Part shown: in pieces, positions 19,021-37,103 of the stretch
Position numbering within the stretch: position 1 is the stretch's first letter
Layout of the letters: each line of letters opens with the position of its first letter
Source: Planctomycetota bacterium
Lineage (GTDB): Bacteria > Planctomycetota > UBA8108 > SXIK01
Direction of reading: 5' to 3'
Assembly: GCA_965223845.1 (NCBI GenBank)
Contig: CBDCXR010000004.1
Coordinates: 320,001 to 384,000, forward strand
Length of the DNA stretch: 64,000 nucleotides
Notes under the pieces: model-generated
What the model saw: only the letters and a program-made list of their open reading frames with translations
The model's database searches: none
Told to the model about the DNA's origin: nothing
Position numbers and translations under genes: made by a program

Positions 19021-19041
19021 AGCTAGTGAGTGAGTATCACC

Positions 19042-20235
19042 ATGCTGAGACCTTTCCCGCGCGTGCTCGTGTTGGCGGCGTTGATTACCTCGAGCGTCAG
19101 CTCCGAAGAGACCGCGGCCGCGGATCCCGAGGAGATCTTTCGCGAGTTGAAGAGCGAGTGGGACGAACGCGGACGCAAAGAAACGGAGCCCCTTCGCCGC
19201 GCCGAAGGAGACGAACGCCTGCGGATCCGAGACGAGCTCTTTCGACGCTACCGGGCGTCGGCGCCGCGCTACGCGAGCAAGTTCTTGCGTCTCGCTGAGG
19301 ACGCACCGAATCACCCGATCGCCGTCGATGCACTTCTTTGGGTCGTATCGAACTTGAACTCGATGCCGGAAGCGGATCGAGCGGTCGAAGTGCTCACCGA
19401 GCGCTACATCGACGATCCGAAGGTGGTCTCTTACATCCTCCGTCTCGGACACTGGGTCTATCCCGCCGATGAGCCGCTTCTTCGCGCGCTCGCCAGTGCG
19501 ACCGACCGCCGCGAAGTTCGCGGCGTGGCGATGTTTCGTCTCGGCGAGACGCTCGCCACGAAATCGGTCTGGGCGCGGCAGCTGAAGCTCGATCCGTCGG
19601 GAACACTGGACGACTTCATCGCGAAGCCGCGCGCACTCGGACCGGGCGTTCTCGCGCATCTCGAGTCACTCGACGCCGACGCGCTCGAAACCGAAGCGGC
19701 GAGTCTGTTCGAAGAGATCGCTGAGAAGTTCGCGGACGTCACGCACGGTGCCGCGACGCTCGGCGTCGCTGCTACCCGCGAACTCGACGAGATGAGGCGT
19801 CTCGCGATCGGAAAACCCGCGCCTGAGGTCAGTGGGGAAGACATCGATGGTGTGAGATTCAAGCTGAGTGACTACCGCGGAAAAGTCGTCGTTCTTTCCT
19901 TTTGGGGGCACTGGTGAGGACCGTGCCGGGTCAAGTACCCCGCCGAGCGGTCGCTCGTCACTCGCCTCAAAGATCGACCCTTTGCCCTCCTCGGAGTGAA
20001 CAGCGATGAAGATCGCGAGAAGCTCAAAAAGACGATTCGGACCGAGAAGATCACCTGGCGGTCGTGGTGGGACGGTGGAAGCACTCGAGGGCCGATCGCC
20101 CGCGCTTGGAACGTCACCGGGTGGCCGACGACGTACGTGATCGACGCGCGCGGGGTGATCCGGTTCAAGTTCGTGTTCACGGACTCGGTGGGACCGATCG
20201 TGGATGCGTTGCTTGAGGAGGTGAAGGAACGGTGA
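19042..20235 (+). CDS. Exported TlpA/redoxin-family selenoprotein candidate (UxxC; in-frame TGA at 19915-19917)
   Basis: IGKPAPEVSGEDIDG..FKLSDYRGKVVVLSFWGHW-TGA-GPCRVKYPAERSLVTRLKDRPFALLGVNSD...WNVTGWPTTYVIDARGVIR: a complete TlpA domain spans the TGA, which sits at the first Cys position of WCxxC. Alternative start GTG 19030. Confidence 0.93.
19918..19952 (+). promoter_or_regulatory. Candidate SECIS hairpin after UGA 19915-19917
   Basis: GACCG(19919-23) pairs with CGGTC(19948-52); upper stem GCCGGGT-[CAAGT]-ACCCCGC with one C-C mismatch; GU in the apical loop. Confidence 0.7.
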
Positions 20236-22946: not shown

Positions 22947-23221
22947 GGTTCTTTCCCGCGGGCGAACCCATCGAACGAGACTTTGAAGCGGCTCCGCACG
23001 GCGCGAAGAAATGAACGAGACGGCGCTCCTTCGGGAGATCTTGCGGAAAAAAGTCGTGTTCTCTTCGTTCGCTCGCAATTCTGGTCGGAGCCACGCGCCT
23101 CCTCGAGGGCTCTCTTTTTCTCGTGGTCTCGGATACGCTTGACCGAAACGCGCTGCGCCCGGATCGAGAAGATCCGGGGCCGCCGAACTGCGCACCTCCG
23201 AGCTCGAGGAGAGAGACGACC

Positions 23222-26200
23222 ATGCCACCGCGTCGATCGTTCGCTCGTTTGCTTCTCTCGTGCGTACTCGTCTCGAGCGCGTCGCTCGCAGGCACGAGCC
23301 TCGTCCGCGCCGCCGACTGCAACGGCAACGGCGTCGACGATGCGAGCGATGTCGAATCAGGAACGAGCGACGACTGCAATCTCGATGGCGTTCCGGATGA
23401 GTGCGAGGTCGCCGCGCTCCGCTTCGGCGCGACGGATGCGGTCGTCCCGCTCGATCAGCGTGCGCGCGTCCTTCGATCCGTGGACGTCGACGGCGATGGC
23501 GACATGGATCTCGTCACCGGGAACCGCCAGTCGCGACAGCTTTCGACTGTGTCGGTACTGCGGAATCGCGGCGACGGAACGTTCGAAAGCGCCGCGTACT
23601 CAGCGGCGATCGATGACGAGACGGACAGCCTCTACGCACTCGAGATCCTCGACCTCGATGGCGACGGCGATCCGGATCTCGTCTCGGCGAACGAGGCCGC
23701 GCTCCTTCTTCTTTTCAACGAGGACGGGCGCGGCGAGTTTTCCCCGCCCGTGTCCGTTCCGCTCCCGGTGGAGAGCCGCATCATCGCGAGCGGCGATGTC
23801 GACGGCGACGGGCACAAGGATGTCGCCGTCGCTCACCGAGGAGGCGGGGCGGTCACGATCCTCCGGAGCGACGGTGCAGGCGGACTCTCTCCGGCGGGCG
23901 AGCTCGAGCTCCCCGAGGAGGCGCGATCTCTCCGCCTCGCTGACTTCGATGGCGACGGCCGGACGGATCTCGCGAGCGCCGGACGATCTGCGGACGGAAT
24001 CTTCTTCCTCGGTGACGGCGCCGGGGGATTCGGTCCGGCGGCGACGGTTTCGCTCGGGGCTCGAAGCGCCGAGCTCGCCATCGCGGCCGACCTCAACGCC
24101 GACGGACGCGCGGATCTCGTCGCGCGCACGTCCCGCTCTCTCTTCGTGGTGTTCGCCGGTGACGAAGGCGGTTTCGCCCCGCCGGTCGCGATTCCCGGCG
24201 TTCCGCGGTCGGCGCTCGCCGCCGACGCGGACGTCGACGGAGACTTCGACCTCGTCATCGGACAGATCGGCAAAGTGACCGTGCGGACGAACGACGGCGC
24301 CGGCCGCTTCGGAATCTCCTTCGACTCCGTTCTCCCGACGAATCCGATCGCGCTCGCTGCCGGTGACTTCGATGGCGATCATGTGCCTGATCTCGCCCTC
24401 GCGGCGGTTGCGGGCTCGACGTCGGAAGTGATCGTCCTCCGCGGCGGAGCCGAGAGCGCCGCGAGTGTCGTGTCCGACCCAGTCCCGCTCACCGGCTGCG
24501 CCGACCCACGCGGTTGCCGGCCGCATTCCGGTACATCGGGCGACTTCGATGGCGACGGCAAGCTCGAGGTCCTCGCGTCGATCACGCACCCGGGATCGTT
24601 CGCGATCACGACCACGAAGTCGGGCGATCTCGAATTCGAAGGAATCCATGTGTTCGGCGGTGAGCATCCACAATCGGTCGCGGCCGGCGACATCGACGGC
24701 GACGGCGACACGGACGCAGTGACGGTCGACAACCTCGACCACAATCTCTACGTGCACGTCAACGACGGCTCCGGCTCGTTCGGTCGTTCGCCGAGCCGGT
24801 ATCGCGTCGGCAACGCGCCGATCAACGTCGCGCTCTTCGACATCGACGGCGACGGCGCACTCGACGCCGCGAGCGCCGACGAGAGCGGCGGAACGGTGAC
24901 GGTCCTCTTCTCCGATGGGGCGGGTGATTTTTCGGACGGGAAGCAAACTCTCCGCGTCGGCGGCAACCCGAAGGCCGTCGCGGCCGGTGATCTCGACGGC
25001 GACGGCGACGGCGATGTCGCGGTTGCGATTCCCTCACGCGGACGGGTGAGCGTCCTTCTCAACATCGGCGAACGCAGGTTCGGCGAGGAGTCGAGCTACC
25101 AGACGAGCGGCCAACCGAATCACGTGACCATGGGAGATTTCGACGGGGACGGAGATCTCGATCTCGCGACGGCGAACAGCTCGCAGACCTCGTCGATTTT
25201 CCTCAACGCCGGCGATGGAACGTTCGGAGAGGCGACCCAGGTCGCGATCGGACAGCGGCCGTACTCCGTGATGGCGGTCGACTTCGACGGCGACGGCTGG
25301 CTCGACCTCGTGACGGGAAATGAAGCTTCGAGCAACGTCTCGATTCTCCCCGGCCGCGGCGATGGCACATTCGACGCGCCGACCCACGTCGAGGGCGGAA
25401 ACGGGCTTCGATTCGTCGCGCCGGGCGACTGGGACGAGGATGGCGACCTCGATCTCGCGACGATCGATCGCGAAGGGCACAGCATTACGATCCTCCGGAA
25501 CGAGTCGCCGGCGTCGCTTCCCGATTACCTCGAGCGCCTGTGCACGCCCCGAGAGTACGAGTTGCTCTCGGCTCGGTCGACGACTCGGGGCGGAGCGGAT
25601 CGCTTTCTCAAGTTTACGATTGCCGCGGACGACGACGACGCGCTCCTCCCCGCGGCGTTTCAGAACACCGATCGCTACGAGCTTCACCTCGATTTTCTCG
25701 AGCAGGTGTTCCCCGAGCGCTTCGGCGGGCTGACGCCGGCGGAGTACGCGCAGCTCGTCGAGAAGCGGTCGACTCGGCGCTACTTCGCCGGAGTGGTCTC
25801 GCGCATCCGGCGCCCGACGGGAACCCTCTACGGATTCTCGGTCGTCGCGGACTTCGGCGATCCGGTGGAGCGACTCGACGCAGCAGAGATGAAGGACGTC
25901 TACGAGAGGCTGCGGCGTCACGTTCACCTCGAGCCCCTCGCGTACGCGCCGGCGACGCGCGACGCGATCGCGGTGGCGGAGGGGTGGGAGGATCCCGGGT
26001 TTCCCGTCGAGCTGGGCGACGCCGACGCGGGGCTCGCGTACGAGTCGTACACTTCCGGCATCGCTTACGGGCGAGTGCGCGTCCTCGATGGCGACGCGTT
26101 CGACGAAGCAAACGAGTCCGGGCGCCTCAGCGCACGGGACATCCTCGTCCTCGAGCGGGCGCCGCGGGATATCGAGGGAGTCGTTGGCGGAGTGATCACG

Positions 26201-28687
26201 GCGGAGCGGCAGAGCGACGATTTTAGCCATCTCCGGGTGCGAACGGCGCGGCGAGGGACGCCAAACGCGTACGTTCGGGACGCGCTCGAGCGATTCACGG
26301 AGAGCGAGCTCGTCCGCCTCGAGGTGAACGCGACGGGTTTCGACGTCACTCCTGTGAGTGCGGACGAGGTCGCGCGCTGGCACGAAGCGAATCGGCGAGA
26401 GCTGTCCGAGCCGCCGCGCGTCGATCGCGAGTTTGACGAGCTTCTCACCCTCGCCGAAATCGCCGAGCTCGACGGGGCGGCCGGCGCTCCGCCGAGCGAG
26501 GCGCGCTTCGGCGGGAAGGCGTCTCACCTCGCGAGGCTTCAGGAGACGCTCACCGGCGAGTTCGAGCGCTATCGGAGGAGCGGCTTTGCGATACCGATCG
26601 CCCACTACTTCGAGTTCCTGAGCTCGAATACGATTCCCTCGCTCGGCGATCCCGACACTGAAGTGACGTACGCGGAGTACCTCGAGGAGCTGCGCGGAAG
26701 CGACGAGTTCGTGAGCGATTCTGCGCGGCGCTTCGAGCTGCTCGCCGCATTCCGTGAGCACATCGAGGATCACGGTGAGGTTTCCGCGGCACTTGTTCGT
26801 CGCGTCGCGCTCAAGGTGGCGGCGGTATTCGGGAGCGCGTCGACTCCGATTCGGCTGCGCTCGTCGTCGAACCTCGAGGATGCCCTCGAGTTCAACGGCG
26901 CCGGTCTCTACGACTCGACGTCGGCGTGCGCCGCCGATGATCTCGACGCGGATTCGGGCGGACCGTCGCGCTGCGATGCCGCGCGAACCGAGGAGCGTGG
27001 CATCGCGCGCGGTCTCAAGCGGGTTTGGGGGAGCCTCTGGAACTTCCGCGCGTACGAGGAACGCGCGTTCTACGGTGTCGACGAGACCGAGGTTGCGATG
27101 GCGGTTCTCGTCACCGGGGCGTTCACCGACGAGCGCGCGAACGGCGTCGCGTTCACCGGCGACCCGTCGGGGGCGGACGACCGCTTCGTCATCGTCGCGC
27201 AGGTGGGGGAGAACAGTGTCGTGAGCCCCGAGCCGGGCGTCGCCGCGGAGCGGAGCCTTCTCGAGGTCGTGGACGGCGAGGTCGTCTCGATCGTCCGCGC
27301 TCGCGCGTCGTCTCTCGTCGAGAACGGCGAGTCGGTGCTCGACGACGACGCGCTCCGCGAGCTCGGTACCGTACTCTGGCATCTCGCGGAGACGTATCCC
27401 GTCGATCTCGGCGGGCACGCTCAGAGCGACGTTCTCCTCGACGTCGAGTTCAAGCTCGACGCGGACGGAAAGGTCGCACTCAAGCAGGTGCGGCCGTTCC
27501 TCCGGACTCAGTCGTCGCAACCCGAGCCCGTCTTCGAGCTCGTCATACCTCCGGGGACGCTCGCCTGCGGTAAGTTCGACATCGCGCGAGATCTGCGCGA
27601 GGAGTATCGACACCAGAGCGTGCTTCGCTTCGTGCCCGGACGCGTCGCGCTCGCGGCCGGAGCGGAACGCTTCGCCGCGAGCATCGTCGAGGACATCGAG
27701 TTCGGGCCTGAGCGCCAACTCGCGACTCCGAGCGGACCCGGGGAGTTTACCGTAACGAAGAGCCGCACGGTCGACGGCGACGATCGGTACCGGTTCGATT
27801 ACGAGCAGGAATTCGCGCTTGCGGACGATTCCCGGGCGAAGCTCGAGATCTTCGGGCTCGAGTTTTTCGCGCGCGACGGGATCGCGTTCGAGCTTTCGCG
27901 TACGGTCGACGACGAACTCCTCACCGACGCCTTGGCCGCGGAATTGACGCCCGCTGACGGCGGCAATTTCACCCGGATCGAGTATTCATCCTGCGCGTAC
28001 GGGCAGCTTCCTCTTTGGATCGTCCACGCGGAGATCGCCGACGGCACGGTACTTCGTCTCGAGGAGAGATTCCGGCGTGAGCCGGAGGAAGAGACCGGAC
28101 CCGCCGCGCTCGTCCGCGCGGATGTCGAATTCGGTGAGACGGTGGGCGGAGGTGCGCAGACGATCACCGACTACTGGAAGCTCGTCTACACGGCGGTGCG
28201 TCACAATCGCGAAGTGAACTACCTCGTTCTCCTCGAGACCCCTGTCGAGCTTGCGGGCCTCGACGCACCGGTTCACGCGATCGAGCTCGTCCCCCCCGAC
28301 CCGTTCCACGAAGTCGACGTCGGCGCGCGCTACCTCGGCGCGGGGCTCGAGCTTCTCACTCGCGCCGAGCTCGTCGAGTTCGATCGCTCGCCCGCCGACG
28401 ACCCGGAGAATCGGCCGTTCCGCCGCGGCGATGCGACCGGAAACGGCAGCCTCGAAGTGAGTGACGCGCTCGCCGTGCTCCGGTATCTCTTTGCGCGCGG
28501 CGACGTTCCCGGCTGTCTCAAGGCGATCGACGCGAACGACGACGGCCGACTGAACGTCACCGATGCGGTGAAGATCCTCCTTCGCCTCTTCGGAGAAGAC
28601 GAGGGGCTGCCCGAACCCTTCGACCGTTGCGGACTCGACCCGACGCCCGACGAGCTCGGGTGTGAGTCGTCCGGCGCGTGCGCGTGA
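23222..28687 (+). CDS. Secreted FG-GAP-repeat protein fused to a PEP/pyruvate-binding (PPDK_N, ATP-grasp) domain and a dockerin-like tail
   Basis: GAGGAG RBS; signal peptide; DCNGNG repeats; many DxDGDG repeats; FGGKA, RLRSSSNLED...FNGAGLYDS, KRVWGSLWNFRA..ER, MAVLV...ANGVAFT, DVEFK...KQVRPF; C-terminal FRRGDA...DANDDG. Confidence 0.88.
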   Translation: MPPRRSFARLLLSCVLVSSASLAGTSLVRAADCNGNGVDDASDVESGTSDDCNLDGVPDECEVAALRFGATDAVVPLDQRARVLRSVDVDGDGDMDLVTGNRQSRQLSTVSVLRNRGDGTFESAAYSAAIDDETDSLYALEILDLDGDGDPDLVSANEAALLLLFNEDGRGEFSPPVSVPLPVESRIIASGDVDGDGHKDVAVAHRGGGAVTILRSDGAGGLSPAGELELPEEARSLRLADFDGDGRTDLASAGRSADGIFFLGDGAGGFGPAATVSLGARSAELAIAADLNADGRADLVARTSRSLFVVFAGDEGGFAPPVAIPGVPRSALAADADVDGDFDLVIGQIGKVTVRTNDGAGRFGISFDSVLPTNPIALAAGDFDGDHVPDLALAAVAGSTSEVIVLRGGAESAASVVSDPVPLTGCADPRGCRPHSGTSGDFDGDGKLEVLASITHPGSFAITTTKSGDLEFEGIHVFGGEHPQSVAAGDIDGDGDTDAVTVDNLDHNLYVHVNDGSGSFGRSPSRYRVGNAPINVALFDIDGDGALDAASADESGGTVTVLFSDGAGDFSDGKQTLRVGGNPKAVAAGDLDGDGDGDVAVAIPSRGRVSVLLNIGERRFGEESSYQTSGQPNHVTMGDFDGDGDLDLATANSSQTSSIFLNAGDGTFGEATQVAIGQRPYSVMAVDFDGDGWLDLVTGNEASSNVSILPGRGDGTFDAPTHVEGGNGLRFVAPGDWDEDGDLDLATIDREGHSITILRNESPASLPDYLERLCTPREYELLSARSTTRGGADRFLKFTIAADDDDALLPAAFQNTDRYELHLDFLEQVFPERFGGLTPAEYAQLVEKRSTRRYFAGVVSRIRRPTGTLYGFSVVADFGDPVERLDAAEMKDVYERLRRHVHLEPLAYAPATRDAIAVAEGWEDPGFPVELGDADAGLAYESYTSGIAYGRVRVLDGDAFDEANESGRLSARDILVLERAPRDIEGVVGGVITAERQSDDFSHLRVRTARRGTPNAYVRDALERFTESELVRLEVNATGFDVTPVSADEVARWHEANRRELSEPPRVDREFDELLTLAEIAELDGAAGAPPSEARFGGKASHLARLQETLTGEFERYRRSGFAIPIAHYFEFLSSNTIPSLGDPDTEVTYAEYLEELRGSDEFVSDSARRFELLAAFREHIEDHGEVSAALVRRVALKVAAVFGSASTPIRLRSSSNLEDALEFNGAGLYDSTSACAADDLDADSGGPSRCDAARTEERGIARGLKRVWGSLWNFRAYEERAFYGVDETEVAMAVLVTGAFTDERANGVAFTGDPSGADDRFVIVAQVGENSVVSPEPGVAAERSLLEVVDGEVVSIVRARASSLVENGESVLDDDALRELGTVLWHLAETYPVDLGGHAQSDVLLDVEFKLDADGKVALKQVRPFLRTQSSQPEPVFELVIPPGTLACGKFDIARDLREEYRHQSVLRFVPGRVALAAGAERFAASIVEDIEFGPERQLATPSGPGEFTVTKSRTVDGDDRYRFDYEQEFALADDSRAKLEIFGLEFFARDGIAFELSRTVDDELLTDALAAELTPADGGNFTRIEYSSCAYGQLPLWIVHAEIADGTVLRLEERFRREPEEETGPAALVRADVEFGETVGGGAQTITDYWKLVYTAVRHNREVNYLVLLETPVELAGLDAPVHAIELVPPDPFHEVDVGARYLGAGLELLTRAELVEFDRSPADDPENRPFRRGDATGNGSLEVSDALAVLRYLFARGDVPGCLKAIDANDDGRLNVTDAVKILLRLFGEDEGLPEPFDRCGLDPTPDELGCESSGACA

Positions 28688-32816: not shown

Positions 32817-35800
32817 ATGACGGAACAGAAGTCGAGAGCACGATTCCTTCTTGCGGGGATTGCGCTCGTGGCCGCTGCAGTCGCGATCGTTGTCGTCTTC
32901 GATCGAGGCCGACGAGAGGAGAGGACTCCCCCGGTCGAACTCGCCGAAGGCGACGATTCGGCTCCGCCGGCAGAATCCGAGAAGGACGGCGATCGGCTCG
33001 AATTCCGCAGCGCGGACGAGGCGCGCGCGTTTGTCGCGCGTGCGAAGTCGTCGCTCGCCCGTCAACCGGGCGATGCGCGCCTTCACCGACAGCTCGGAAC
33101 GGCCCTGAGCGCGCTCGGTGAGCGAGACGACGCGCTCGCTCACTACGGCCGAGCCGTAGAGCTCGCGCCGAGCGACGCCGAAGCGCAGAACGATTTCGCC
33201 GTACTTCTGGCCGCGAGCGGGCAGATCGAGCGGGCCATGGCGCACTTTCGCGCGGCGATCCGCGTCGACCCCGATCACGCCGAGAGTCGAGTCAATCTCG
33301 GGAATACGCTCGTCGTTCAGAGAAAGTTTGCGGAGGCGATCCCGCACTTTCGCCGTGCGATCGCAGTGCGGCCGGACTACGCGAAGGCGCACAACAACCT
33401 CGCCGTCGCTCTCAAGGAAACGGGGAGTATCGACGAGGCGCACGTCCACCTTCGTGAGGCGATGCGTTTCCGTCGCGAGCAGGCGGCGTCGACGTCTCGC
33501 GACTCTCCGGCCGTCGCGGAGAGACGAGAGGGCGCCGAAGATTCCGCGGATTCGCGAAGAGCAGCGGAGCGCGACGCCGAGGGTGTCGCGGCGATGACGA
33601 CGCGACGCATCGAGTCGGAGCGAGCGTCGGCCGCGACCGCTCTCGATCCGAGCTCCGACGGCTGGGAGTCGGAAGCGGTCGCCGAAACGGCGAAAGCGCG
33701 GCTCGAGCGACTCGCCGCACTCCTCTCGGGTCCGGGACCGATCGACCCGACGAGCTTCGACGGCCTCGTCTCCGCCGATCCCGAGTCGACGGAGTTCGAC
33801 GGGAAACTCGAGGAGGCGTACCGCGACGCGGTCCTCACCGTGCGCCGTCGAGCGGCGCCCGTCACGAAAGAGGATCGGGTGAACCGAGGGCGCGCATCGC
33901 TCGCGAAAGCACTCGAAACGCTCGCGGCGCCGCTCCGTGGAGCGAGCGATGTCGAAACGCACGTAAAGATCGTCCGCGTCGATCTCGCCGGCGATTCCGT
34001 CGCTACCCTCGCGTACTTCGACGCGAGTGGTCGTACGGGCGCGGGTGCAGTCGGAGTTCGCGATGTATGGCGATGCCGCTGGGCGCGAGAGAACGGTGAG
34101 CTGCTTCTCGATTCTCTGAGTTCGGACGACTACGAACGGATCGACGCTCGCGGATCCCGGTGGTTCACCGACTGTACGGCGGCGGTTCTCGGAGCGAACG
34201 ACTCGTTCGAGCGCCAGCTCGTTCCCGGACTCAACCACTGGCTCGCCCGCATCGAGCGGGTCCACAGCATGCACGTCTTCGCGCGTTACGGACTCGCGGT
34301 CGGCGACGTCAACGGCGACGATCTCGACGATGTCTACGTGTGTCAGCCGGGCGGTCTCCCGAATCGGCTCTACGTGCAGAACGCGGACGGGACGGCGAGC
34401 GACACCTCCGCGGCCGCCGGGGTCGACTGGCTCGACCACACGAGCAGCGCGCTCCTCGTCGATCTCGACGGTGATGGCGATCAGGATCTCGTCGCGGCGA
34501 CGATCTTCGGACTCATCCTCATGGCGAATGACGGGCGGGGCTCGTTCGCTCGTCGCGCGGTTCTTGCGCCGCGCGACATCGATCTCCACTCTCTGAGCGC
34601 CGCGGATTACGACGGCGACGGAGACCTCGACCTCTACATCTGTACGGACTTCGCGCAGGAAGTCGCACGCCCCGGGGCAGGAACGGGATTCGTTTACCAC
34701 GACGCGAACGATGGCGGAGCGAATCTTCTCTTTCGAAACGACATCGCGTCGAGCGAGGACGGGGCGTCGGTCGAGGGTGGGGCGACTTGGTCGTTTACCG
34801 ACGTCACGAAGGACGTCGGGCTCGACGTCGACAACCGCCGGCACAGCCTCGCGGCGGCGTGGGAGGACTACGACAATGACGGCGATCCCGACCTCTACGT
34901 CGCGAACGACTACGGTCAAAACTGCCTCTACCGAAACGACGGCGGACGCTTCGTGAACGTCGCTCGCCAGGCGGGCGTCGTCGATTTCGGCTCGGGAATG
35001 TCGGTGAGCTGGGCCGACTTCAACCGCGACGGTCGCTTGGATATCTACGTCGGGAACATGTTCTCCTCGGCGGGAAATCGCATCACGCGCCAGCTCGGCT
35101 TCAAACCCGGCGTGAACGAGACGACGCGCGAACTCTACCGCCGTTTCGCGAAGGGAAACTCCCTCTTCGAGAACATTGGCGGCGGCACGTTCCGCGAGGT
35201 GGGCGCGGAAGCGGGCGTCGAGATGGGGCGCTGGGCGTGGAGCTCCGTGTTCGCGGACATCAACAGCGACGGCTGGGACGATCTCCTCGTCGCGAACGGC
35301 TACATCACGACGGAAGACACCGGCGACTTGTGAAGCTTTTTCTGGCGACAGGTCGTGTCGCACGGACGAGTCGCAGTGAGGGACGTGCCGTCGAGCGGGG
35401 GCGCGGCGACCGCCGGCACTCGGCTCCACGATTTCATCCGGCGGGGACGCTCCTTTAGTGGTCGAGAGCGAAACTGCTGCTTTCTCAATACGGGGCGCGC
35501 CGCGCGCCGGTTCGCGGATGTCTCCACCGTGAGCGGGTTCGACTTCGCCGACGACGCCCGTGCGATCGCGCGCGTCGATTGGGATCACGACGGCGACCTA
35601 GACTTTTGGGTCGCGAACCGAAGCGGGCCGCAAGTGCGCTTTCTCCGCAACGATGTTCCTCGTGCCGGTCGATCGATCTCGCTCGCTCTAGTCGGCACTC
35701 GCTCGAATCGCGACGCGATCGGAGCGCGCGTCGAGATGGTCTTCGCAAATGAGGCGCATCCGAAGCTCGTCCGCTCGCTCCGCGCGGGAGACGGCTTTCT

Positions 35801-37103
35801 CGCGCAGTCGACCAAGTGGCTTCACTTCGGGCTCGGGGAGGCGACCGAGATCGAACGCGTCACGGTGCGGTGGCCGAACGGTGAGGAGGAGGACTTCCGT
35901 GACGTCCGCGCGGGCGGACGCTTCCGTTTGGTGGAAGGACGCGGCGTCGCCGAAGCGTCGCCGAAGCGTCAGCCAGGCGTGCGGCTTGTCGAGACTCCGC
36001 CTCGCGAGTTCACCTCTCGTGAGCCGCGGCGCGTCGTCTCGCGAGCGCGGCTTCCTGTACCCATACTCGAGTACGACGACTTTGACGGCGAGCCGCGATC
36101 GGTGTTTCGCGCCGCCGATGAGGACGCGACCGGCGCGACCGAACCCCGCGCGATGCTTCTCGTTCTGTGGGCGAGCTGGTGCCCGCCGTGCATCCTCGAG
36201 CTCCGCGAGATCGCCGAACGCGCGGGAGATCTTCGCGCAGCCGGTCTCGACGTCGTCGCGCTCTCGGTCGACGGGCTCGCGGAGAAGCCGGGACGCTCGC
36301 CGGCGGAGCTTAGTGACATCATCGCGCAGACCGAGTTTCCGTTCGCAGCGGGCCTCGCTCGCGAGCGCACGCTCGAACGCCTCGAGCGCGTTCACGATCG
36401 ACTCTTCGATCTTCGTCGGCGATTCCCCGTTCCCGTGAGCTTCCTCATCGACGGACGAGGCGAGCTCCTTACGATCTATCGCGGTCGTCTCGGAGTCGAC
36501 GCGCTCCTTCACGACGTGGAGCGGGCGAAGACGCGTACGCTTCGCGCGAGTGCACTCCCGTTCTCGGGTCGGTGGCTGCGCGAACCTGGGCGCTTGAGTC
36601 CCTTCACACTCGTCTGGGAGCTGCTCGCAGGCGGCGACGCACATGCCGGAATCCGGTACTTCGCGAAGCACCACGATCTCCTCCGCGCGCACGTCCGATT
36701 TCCGCAGCTCGCCGTGCTCGCGGGAAACGCACGGCTCTCGCGCGGAGACGTCCGAGCGGCGATGGCGCTCTACCGCGAAGCCATCGCGCGCGACGCGGAA
36801 TACGTCGATGCGCAGAACAACCTCGCGTGGGTGCTCGCGACCCACGCGGAAGACGGCGTCCGCGACGGTGCCGAGGCGGTGCGACTCGCGCAGTCGGCGC
36901 TCCAGAAGTCAGAGGGCAGGTTGACTTCGGTGTGGAACACCCTCGCCGCCGCGCTCGCAGAGGCGGGAGACTTCCCGCGGGCGATCGAAGTGGCCGAGCG
37001 AGCCCTCGAGCTCGCGCGCGACCGCGAGCAGGGCGAGCTCGCCGAAACGATCGAGCGCCGGCTCGCGCTCTACCGAAACCATCTCCCGTACAGATCCCGG
37101 TGA
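32817..37103 (+). CDS. Membrane-anchored TPR + FG-GAP/CRTAC1 + ASPIC/UnbV + TlpA + TPR protein; selenoprotein candidate (1428 aa, in-frame TGA = U839)
   Basis: ORFs ..35333 and 35355.. are in the same frame: ANGYITTEDTGDL-TGA-SFFWRQVVS. The CRTAC1-type propeller continues across the TGA (SFSGRERN..FLN, DWDHDGDLD), followed by SNRDAIGARV...LHFGLG...VRWP (ASPIC/UnbV), WASWCPPC (TlpA) and TPRs. A strong hairpin follows the TGA. Confidence 0.82.
35341..35366 (+). promoter_or_regulatory. Candidate SECIS hairpin after UGA 35331-35333
   Basis: TCTG-GCGACA-[GGTCG]-TGTCGC-A-CGGA: a perfect 6-bp upper stem starts 11 nt after UGA, and CAGGUC resembles the apical sequence of the E. coli fdhF SECIS. Confidence 0.78.

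Follow-up and report, generated by a model that had tools for sequence, protein, structure and literature searches.

Proteins of the CRTAC1/ASPIC-UnbV type, such as murine CRTAC1, join an FG-GAP beta-propeller to a following UnbV_ASPIC domain, and ResA/TlpA/CcmG-type oxidoreductases combine a thioredoxin fold with a CxxC motif at the N-terminus of a helix and a Glu three residues past the second Cys. In PilB-type fused thioredoxin–methionine sulfoxide reductases, a periplasmic TlpA-like domain re-reduces the enzyme to which it is fused in cis. Extracytoplasmic redox selenoproteins with a bacterial selenocysteine (Sec) insertion sequence (SECIS) include the UGC-containing TlpA, WAxxUGC and UxxC oxidoreductases listed in a May 2026 catalogue of 119 prokaryotic selenoprotein families or subfamilies (PMC13188914, Table 1). 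Here we describe a gene with features of each of these systems, found in a window of 64,000 nucleotides (positions 320,001 to 384,000 of contig CBDCXR010000004.1, assembly GCA_965223845.1) of a Planctomycetota bacterium (UBA8108; SXIK01). An in-frame UGA, which judging from sequence is almost certainly decoded as Sec (U839), lies within an FG-GAP propeller, and a ResA/TlpA-like thioredoxin (Trx) domain follows in the same 1428-residue chain. Among homologues, Sec and the CxxC(xxE) of the Trx domain are retained or lost together.

The top Foldseek match of the predicted structure was murine CRTAC1 (PDB 9etn_A; E 7.8e-27, template modelling (TM) score 0.72 normalised to the length of the target, with 18% identity over 604 columns). 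That 551-residue match is without Sec, Trx domain, tetratricopeptide repeat (TPR) flanks and membrane anchor, all of which are present or, in the case of the anchor, probably present here. No redox role for CRTAC1 came up in the present analysis. The next matches, to the Trx part, were ResA (2f9s, 1st9) and TlpA (1jfu), with probability 1.0, and the list also held 2h1b, titled "ResA E80Q". Unlike ResA and TlpA, the domain is internal to a long protein and its proposed client is the Sec of the same chain. It is not an orthologue of either, since its scores fall far below the NCBIfam equivalog cut-offs (TlpA NF047696, 29.4 bits against 230; ResA NF002854, 24.9 against 170). In the catalogued Trx-fold selenoproteins, Sec stands in for one of the two CxxC cysteines; here both are Cys, and U839 lies about 280 residues upstream of the motif in a propeller insert, in accord with the initial annotation, which had placed this Sec outside any CxxU or UxxC motif. 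The likeness to PilB-type proteins is one of built-in reductant logic alone, as no methionine sulfoxide reductase domain was found with Pfam or NCBIfam.

In NCBIfam the family has no model of its own: matches of the protein there were confined to TPR and weak Trx ones, and the sole match to a selenoprotein model was WAxxUGC_long on the Trx domain (29.6 bits against a cut-off of 300). The suggestion that the family is undescribed agrees with its absence from the catalogue of 119 families: Table 1 of PMC13188914 has no CRTAC1, FG-GAP or ASPIC entry, and the terms FG-GAP, ASPIC, UnbV, CRTAC1 and propeller occur nowhere in its text. The main text of the deep-Sep paper (PMC12013277) likewise has no occurrence of terms of this kind. 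FG-GAP, ASPIC, VCBS and tetratricopeptide are absent from the main text of a Planctomycetes paper (PMC4807772), whose candidates are given in supplementary Table S9, which may hold a member. The family was not found in the literature on selenoproteins or selenocysteine with FG-GAP, CRTAC1, ASPIC or UnbV, or on Planctomycetes or Verrucomicrobia with SECIS, where supplementary candidate lists might hold a member. The protein is almost certainly a bacterial selenoprotein with a standard SECIS, but the fold around the Sec and the logic of the site are new. The family would differ in kind from most of those catalogued in having Sec outside UxxC/CxxU and outside the thioredoxin fold, and homologues that are mostly non-Cys.

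The UGA codon, its hairpin and the reading frame

Reading the TGA as U joins two open reading frames (ORFs), 32727/32817-35333 and 35355-37103, into a single frame that closes at a second TGA. Translation of 32817-37103 in this way gives ...ANGYITTEDTGDL-U839-SFFWRQVVS... around the Sec. Every element that the initial annotation had observed, namely the frame, the TGA, the hairpin, the CC pair and the WCPPC motif, is present in the sequence.

Forty related genomes from this order and class were searched in all six frames with residues 500-1060 as query, and about 85 of the strongest matches listed hold exactly one TGA apiece. In all 20 loci retained from this search the TGA falls at the same column, within the motif [DE][LT]-U-S-x-[FYW]-W-R-x-V. 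The genome itself encodes eight paralogues with TGA at this column, the other seven (G000:C4 at 6222275, 952543, 3012607, 613675, 2896518, 2069247 and 4395358) all having the CxxC. Two paralogues, L044 and L045, are shorter, end without C-terminal TPRs and have divergent hairpins. The ordinary CRTAC1-like paralogues of this genome read ...ANGH... and have a gap at the insert that carries DL-U-SFFWRQVV. A further match with one TGA in this genome (C4:2031841-2032353) was rejected as a Sec site, its TGA being an ordinary stop after the ASPIC domain and outside the column.

The column was followed further in the 80 best loci from one-genome-per-species contigs. TGA is present in 59 of these, from named Planctomycetota, Verrucomicrobiota and Acidobacteriota; record titles include Pirellulaceae, Planctomycetaceae and Phycisphaerae in the first phylum, Akkermansiaceae and Roseibacillus in the second, and Holophagales and others in the third. 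The remaining 21 loci, mostly from Terriglobales and Acidobacteriaceae, have Ser in seven cases, Ala in six, Gly in three, Asn in two, and Glu, Met and Asp in one each. In all, 86 TGA forms were collected, comprising the eight paralogues and 78 loci of other assemblies in three phyla. The initial annotation had allowed that homologues might have neither Cys nor TGA at this column; TGA was found in these 86 loci and Cys in 4 of 106 motif-bearing representative proteins, with an additional Cys form in L030 (DYCSEFWRH). A pseudogene or an assembly error at the TGA codon has nothing in its favour beyond the stop codon itself, and with the same TGA recurring in the eight paralogues and the 78 other loci, and the domains downstream intact (CxxC in 77/80), we regard this explanation as hardly conceivable.

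The genome (7.9 Mb in four contigs) also encodes the machinery for Sec decoding, with matches above the curated cut-offs to tRNA-Sec (68.1 bits), the SelB winged-helix domain (69.1), SelA (453) and SelD (307.8). SelA was found in all five additional genomes with TGA forms. In five sampled genomes with non-TGA forms, the SelA match was strong in two, weak in one and absent in two.

The TGA (35331-35333) is followed by an 11-nt spacer (35334-35344) and a hairpin composed of GCGACA (35345-35350), the loop GGTCG (35351-35355) and TGTCGC (35356-35361), so that the 6-bp stem and 5-nt loop beginning 11 nt past the TGA are as the initial annotation had read them. The bacterial SECIS model given in section 5 of PMC13188914 specifies a loop of 3-9 nt, a stem of 4-16 bp, a G in the first two loop positions, a UGA-to-loop distance of 16-37 nt and an energy of -7.5 kcal/mol or lower. 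The present hairpin agrees with this model in its loop of 5 nt (GGUCG), stem of 6 bp, apical loop 17 nt after the UGA and energy of -9.3 kcal/mol (19-nt stretch 35344-35362 folded).

Across the 86 TGA forms, 97.9% of cells over the six pairs can pair, a value reached by none of 500 shuffles; pairing was 13.8-67.6% when the 3' partner was slid as a control. Pair 24-34, which matches the third base of an Arg codon with the first base of an S, P, A or T codon, occurs as all six standard types (GU 34, AU 32, GC 13, CG 2, UG 2, UA 1), and double-sided changes are found at three pairs (24-34, 22-36 and 26-32). The 21 non-TGA forms encoding the same SFFWRQVV peptide served as a control: pairing is found in 57.9% of their cells, no more than in shuffles, of which 459 out of 500 attain this figure. 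Encoding the peptide thus does not by itself bring about the pairing. The check that the initial annotation had proposed, hairpin conservation against the residue at the column, gave a hairpin kept with compensatory changes in TGA forms and pairing at shuffle level in the others. The SECIS lies inside the W-R-Q-V-V-S codons, and its position within a conserved peptide motif makes for an unusually clean mutual constraint of RNA structure and protein sequence. The Ser after Sec is encoded by AGY in 85 of the 86 TGA forms, L090 with its UCG being the exception. The spacer of 11 nt, AGYUUYUUCUG, is almost invariant, and there may be a context constraint after the UGA beyond the hairpin.

Protein homologues were collected with HMMER from 1.84 billion representatives, residues 760-960 serving as query, and the counts given here refer to the 150 proteins listed. 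Of these, 130 cross the column uninterrupted, and the remaining 20 are either N-terminal fragments ending ...GDL or C-terminal fragments starting right past the motif, reflecting gene callers that cut Sec forms at the UGA. Non-Sec homologues are uninterrupted proteins of about 1000-1450 residues. A search of 90% clusters gave the same picture, the best full-length relative having at most 57% identity. Relatives are named in their sources as "tetratricopeptide repeat protein", "FG-GAP-like repeat-containing protein" or "TadD/peroxiredoxin", and never as selenoproteins.

Residues 464-1264 were modelled with AlphaFold2 from an alignment of 101 rows (seven read-through references and 94 stored proteins), which gave a predicted local distance difference test (pLDDT) score of 91.9 and a predicted TM (pTM) score of 0.94. 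In this model U839 opens helix 376-384 (USFFWRQVV, model numbering), which belongs to a two-helix insert between propeller blades; the second helix (399-412) is followed by strand 424-428, which bears C887-C888, and C1122 (model residue 659) immediately precedes helix 660-671.

These results bear on a simpler account in which the TGA is an ordinary stop separating two genes, one for an 838-residue propeller fragment and the other for a protein starting at GTG 35355. Public gene calls do split here, leaving the ...GDL and post-motif fragments, and 35355-37103 is listed as an ORF of its own. We nevertheless consider this account very improbable, as the SFFWRQV peptide between the TGA and GTG 35355 is conserved as protein in the 86 TGA forms and in all non-TGA forms, compensatory changes in the hairpin are confined to TGA forms, and a split would part the blades of a propeller that the read-through model shows as one body (pTM 0.94). 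The initial annotation had likewise considered two consistently separate genes with an independent start at that GTG; wherever the TGA is absent, the homologue is one uninterrupted protein.

Association of Sec with the thioredoxin-like CxxC

Intact CxxC, as judged with a domain profile, was found in all eight paralogues of this genome, in all 12 C-terminal fragments of split Sec forms and in 9 of 75 representatives that have another residue at the column together with a Trx match. Among genomic loci it is intact in 77 of 80 assessable TGA loci, compared with 1 of 17 non-TGA loci. These sources were pooled into 170 sufficiently long rows, rows with less than 330 residues before or after the column being dropped. 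In the pooled set CxxC is intact in 72/73 U forms, 10/76 other-residue forms and 2/3 Cys forms.

The shared ancestry of these proteins was taken into account with a FastTree tree built with the trait column masked, on which U changes to or from other residues 18 times and CxxC changes 15 times. Ten independent pairs were taken on supported branches. CxxC differs in the same direction as Sec in 5.9 of them, in the opposite direction in 0.0 and not at all in 4.1 (median p 0.03). Columns were taken as characteristic of Sec forms when at least 75% of these, and no more than 35% of the other forms, have the residue in question; among them are U839, S881, D927, C1122 and E1128. The last of these completes WCPPCxxE, with C1122 and C1125 as the two Cys, a CxxCxxE arrangement like that of ResA with its Glu80. 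The initial annotation had linked the propeller to its TlpA domain as a catalytic or redox-switched site recycled in cis; the link stands as co-occurrence, and it is this co-occurrence that suggests the recycling. The joint retention and loss of Sec and CxxC constitutes a natural experiment marking the residues of the redox module, and makes the function of bacterial CRTAC1/ASPIC-UnbV proteins testable.

The CC pair that had been reported about 50 residues past the Sec is C887-C888 (RERNCCFLN), 48-49 residues after U839. An ERN-C motif is present in 56/72 U forms and 14/75 others. As a resolving Cys for the Sec this site was set aside, its raw association being unsupported by the independent pairs, and we retain it as a weak possibility.

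Some homologues with Sec at this column have no Trx domain. L037:2030 (G003) and L038:1604 (G005), from the same family and the same order as this genome, form a second Sec subfamily with the motif HDL-U-AEFN[TS]GAVAP and TGA at the same column; their hairpin has a different stem and again a GGUC loop. The existence of this subfamily indicates that Sec at the column predates the Trx fusion or is spread more widely than it, and that a reductant in cis is not obligatory.

Possible role of the selenocysteine

The gene encodes one multidomain chain, probably extracytoplasmic, and we infer that its Sec would serve as a redox-active nucleophile. It would be oxidized by an extracytoplasmic substrate, such as a peroxide, a sulfoxide or a disulfide-type oxidant, and the co-occurrence of the two sites suggests that it would be re-reduced by the CxxC of the ResA-like domain in the same chain. 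The Trx domain, for its part, could be reduced through a membrane protein of the CcdA/DsbD type; a DsbD_TM homologue is encoded elsewhere in the genome (96.7 bits). Lineages that lose Sec would place any residue at the column and let the CxxC decay, in which case the redox module looks accessory to a scaffold that is independent of Sec. We assign this explanation as a whole, including the coupling, a probability of roughly 0.6. That Sec is functionally coupled to the Trx domain in cis seems probable from the sequence comparisons, and any single named chemistry is doubtful.

Several observations weigh against this reading. Residues at the column in the 106 motif-bearing representatives are diverse (E 32, D 21, S 19, A 11, N 9, M 4, C 4, Q 3, G 1, R 1, gap 1), so that without Sec the column looks unconstrained; such scarcity of Cys would be unusual if the Sec is catalytic, and a dispensable or metal-binding site could explain it too. 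The association with CxxC is incomplete, the motif being retained in the 10 other-residue forms and missing or unassessable in 3 of the 80 TGA loci, and the sign test depends on the FastTree tree, with p spanning 0.016-0.25. For ERN-C, the independent pairs give 3.1 in the same direction and 2.0 in the opposite one, which is not significant. Many non-Sec forms retain xxxC, sometimes as S/TxxC, and for this reason the domain is not necessarily dead in them. L037 and L038 end after the ASPIC domain without a Trx domain, and L037, at least, has no Cys in the 200 residues past the Sec. There is no CcdA/DsbD or other evident operon partner among the neighbouring genes. With regard to the hairpin, an Rfam scan of 35250-35480 with E up to 10 gave zero matches, and folding of a single 76-nt sequence (35325-35400) gave a z of -0.25 with the minimum free energy structure choosing a different pairing, on account of which single-sequence folding is uninformative alone.

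Forms that retain only xxxC, several of them as S/TxxC, include L100, L103, L107, L108, L111, L115, L119, L121, L122 and L124, the majority from Terriglobales or other Acidobacteriota. By analogy with CxxC-derived motifs, these might point to a peroxiredoxin-like use of the domain rather than simple decay.

In an alternative reading, the Sec is real but acts as a ligand of a soft metal or chalcogen (Cu, Hg, Zn, selenium or sulfur species) or lets the propeller sense redox state. The Trx domain would then work on other clients in the periplasm or simply maintain the site in reduced form. FG-GAP propellers are metal-binding scaffolds according to Pfam, and half of the motif-bearing representatives (53/106) have E or D, typical hard-metal ligands, at the column where only 4 have Cys. 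The Trx-less Sec subfamily would fit as well, and TlpA proper takes part in the maturation of copper proteins, ScoI and cytochrome oxidase subunit II being named in the titles of PDB 4txo and 4txv. Against a ligand or sensor, other homologues have S, A, N, M or Q at the column, none of which is a metal ligand, and the position of Sec at a helix N-terminus in the AlphaFold2 model is the usual setting of a nucleophile. The first Cys of the CxxC and the ResA-type Glu are, moreover, retained almost only with Sec, which a shared redox cycle fits better. We therefore regard the ligand or sensor role as unlikely, though far from negligible, and favor the nucleophile re-reduced in cis.

Taken more broadly, the data allow us to propose, tentatively, a widespread class of extracytoplasmic selenoenzymes with a catalytic Sec at the N-terminus of a propeller helix, re-reduced by a built-in ResA-like domain and expanded to about eight paralogues per genome in Planctomycetota, Verrucomicrobiota and Acidobacteriota. 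Such a class would have been overlooked because each of its genes is cut in two at the UGA by gene callers. The eight copies in a single genome, together with TGA at the column in 59 of the 80 best loci across the three phyla, indicate that public annotation is systematically splitting hundreds of long genes. If the proposal is correct, the family may make up a major share of the selenoproteome in these organisms, and it would provide the first enzymatic function for the CRTAC1/ASPIC fold.

Gene layout and neighborhood

The features of the gene are collected in Table 1. The hydrophobic stretch near the N-terminus is a probable signal anchor, which would place the remaining chain outside the cytoplasm. 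Pfam matches to the propeller and the domain following it are all above the cut-offs (FG-GAP_3 127.3 bits, FG-GAP 76.5 bits, UnbV_ASPIC 63.1 bits), and AhpC-TSA (also Redoxin) matches residues 1111-1217 of the Trx region with 31.5 bits against a cut-off of 26.

Table 1. Features of the Sec-containing propeller gene, with positions counted from the first nucleotide of the window
Feature	Position in window	Strand	Basis or remark
Whole gene	32817..37103	+	1428 codons via TGA 35331; alternative upstream start GTG 32727; terminal TGA 37101-37103
N-terminal hydrophobic stretch, residues 10-28, FLLAGIALVAAAVAIVVVF, after KSRAR	32844..32900	+	Sequence read directly
N-terminal TPR repeats, about residues 73-221	33033..33479	+	Pfam
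FG-GAP beta-propeller, CRTAC1-like, about residues 490-960	34284..35696	+	Pfam, AlphaFold2 model, Foldseek
Sec codon U839	35331..35333	+	Frame, homologue alignment, AlphaFold2 model
SECIS hairpin	35345..35361	+	Sequence, covariation in 86 forms, published bacterial SECIS model
C887-C888 in ERNCC, first strand of next blade (model strand 424-428)	35475..35480	+	Sequence and model
UnbV_ASPIC domain, residues 967-1033	35715..35915	+	Pfam
ResA/TlpA-like thioredoxin-fold domain, about residues 1085-1240, C1122-P-P-C1125 and E1128	36069..36536	+	Pfam, NCBIfam, Foldseek
C-terminal TPR region, approximate limits; Pfam TPR_7 at 1376-1405	36684..37046	+	

Neighboring genes encode an FG-GAP/PPDK_N protein, an F5/8 type C-domain protein, a TPR protein, a sulfatase, an FGE-sulfatase with DUF1579 and WD40 proteins. 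The first of these is an ORF of 1854 residues (window 23123-28687, plus strand) in which 11 FG-GAP_3 stretches stand together with PPDK_N, the ATP-binding domain of pyruvate phosphate dikinase, an unusual pairing.

A second in-frame TGA (19915-19917) lies in a 400-residue frame at 19030-20232 of the window, also on the plus strand, and reads ...LSFWGHW-U-GPCRVKYP.... With its W-U-x-x-C motif of the thioredoxin fold, the predicted product is a selenoprotein of a catalogued kind, the TlpA/thiol:disulfide oxidoreductase type, and it is probably another of the three candidates of the initial annotation.

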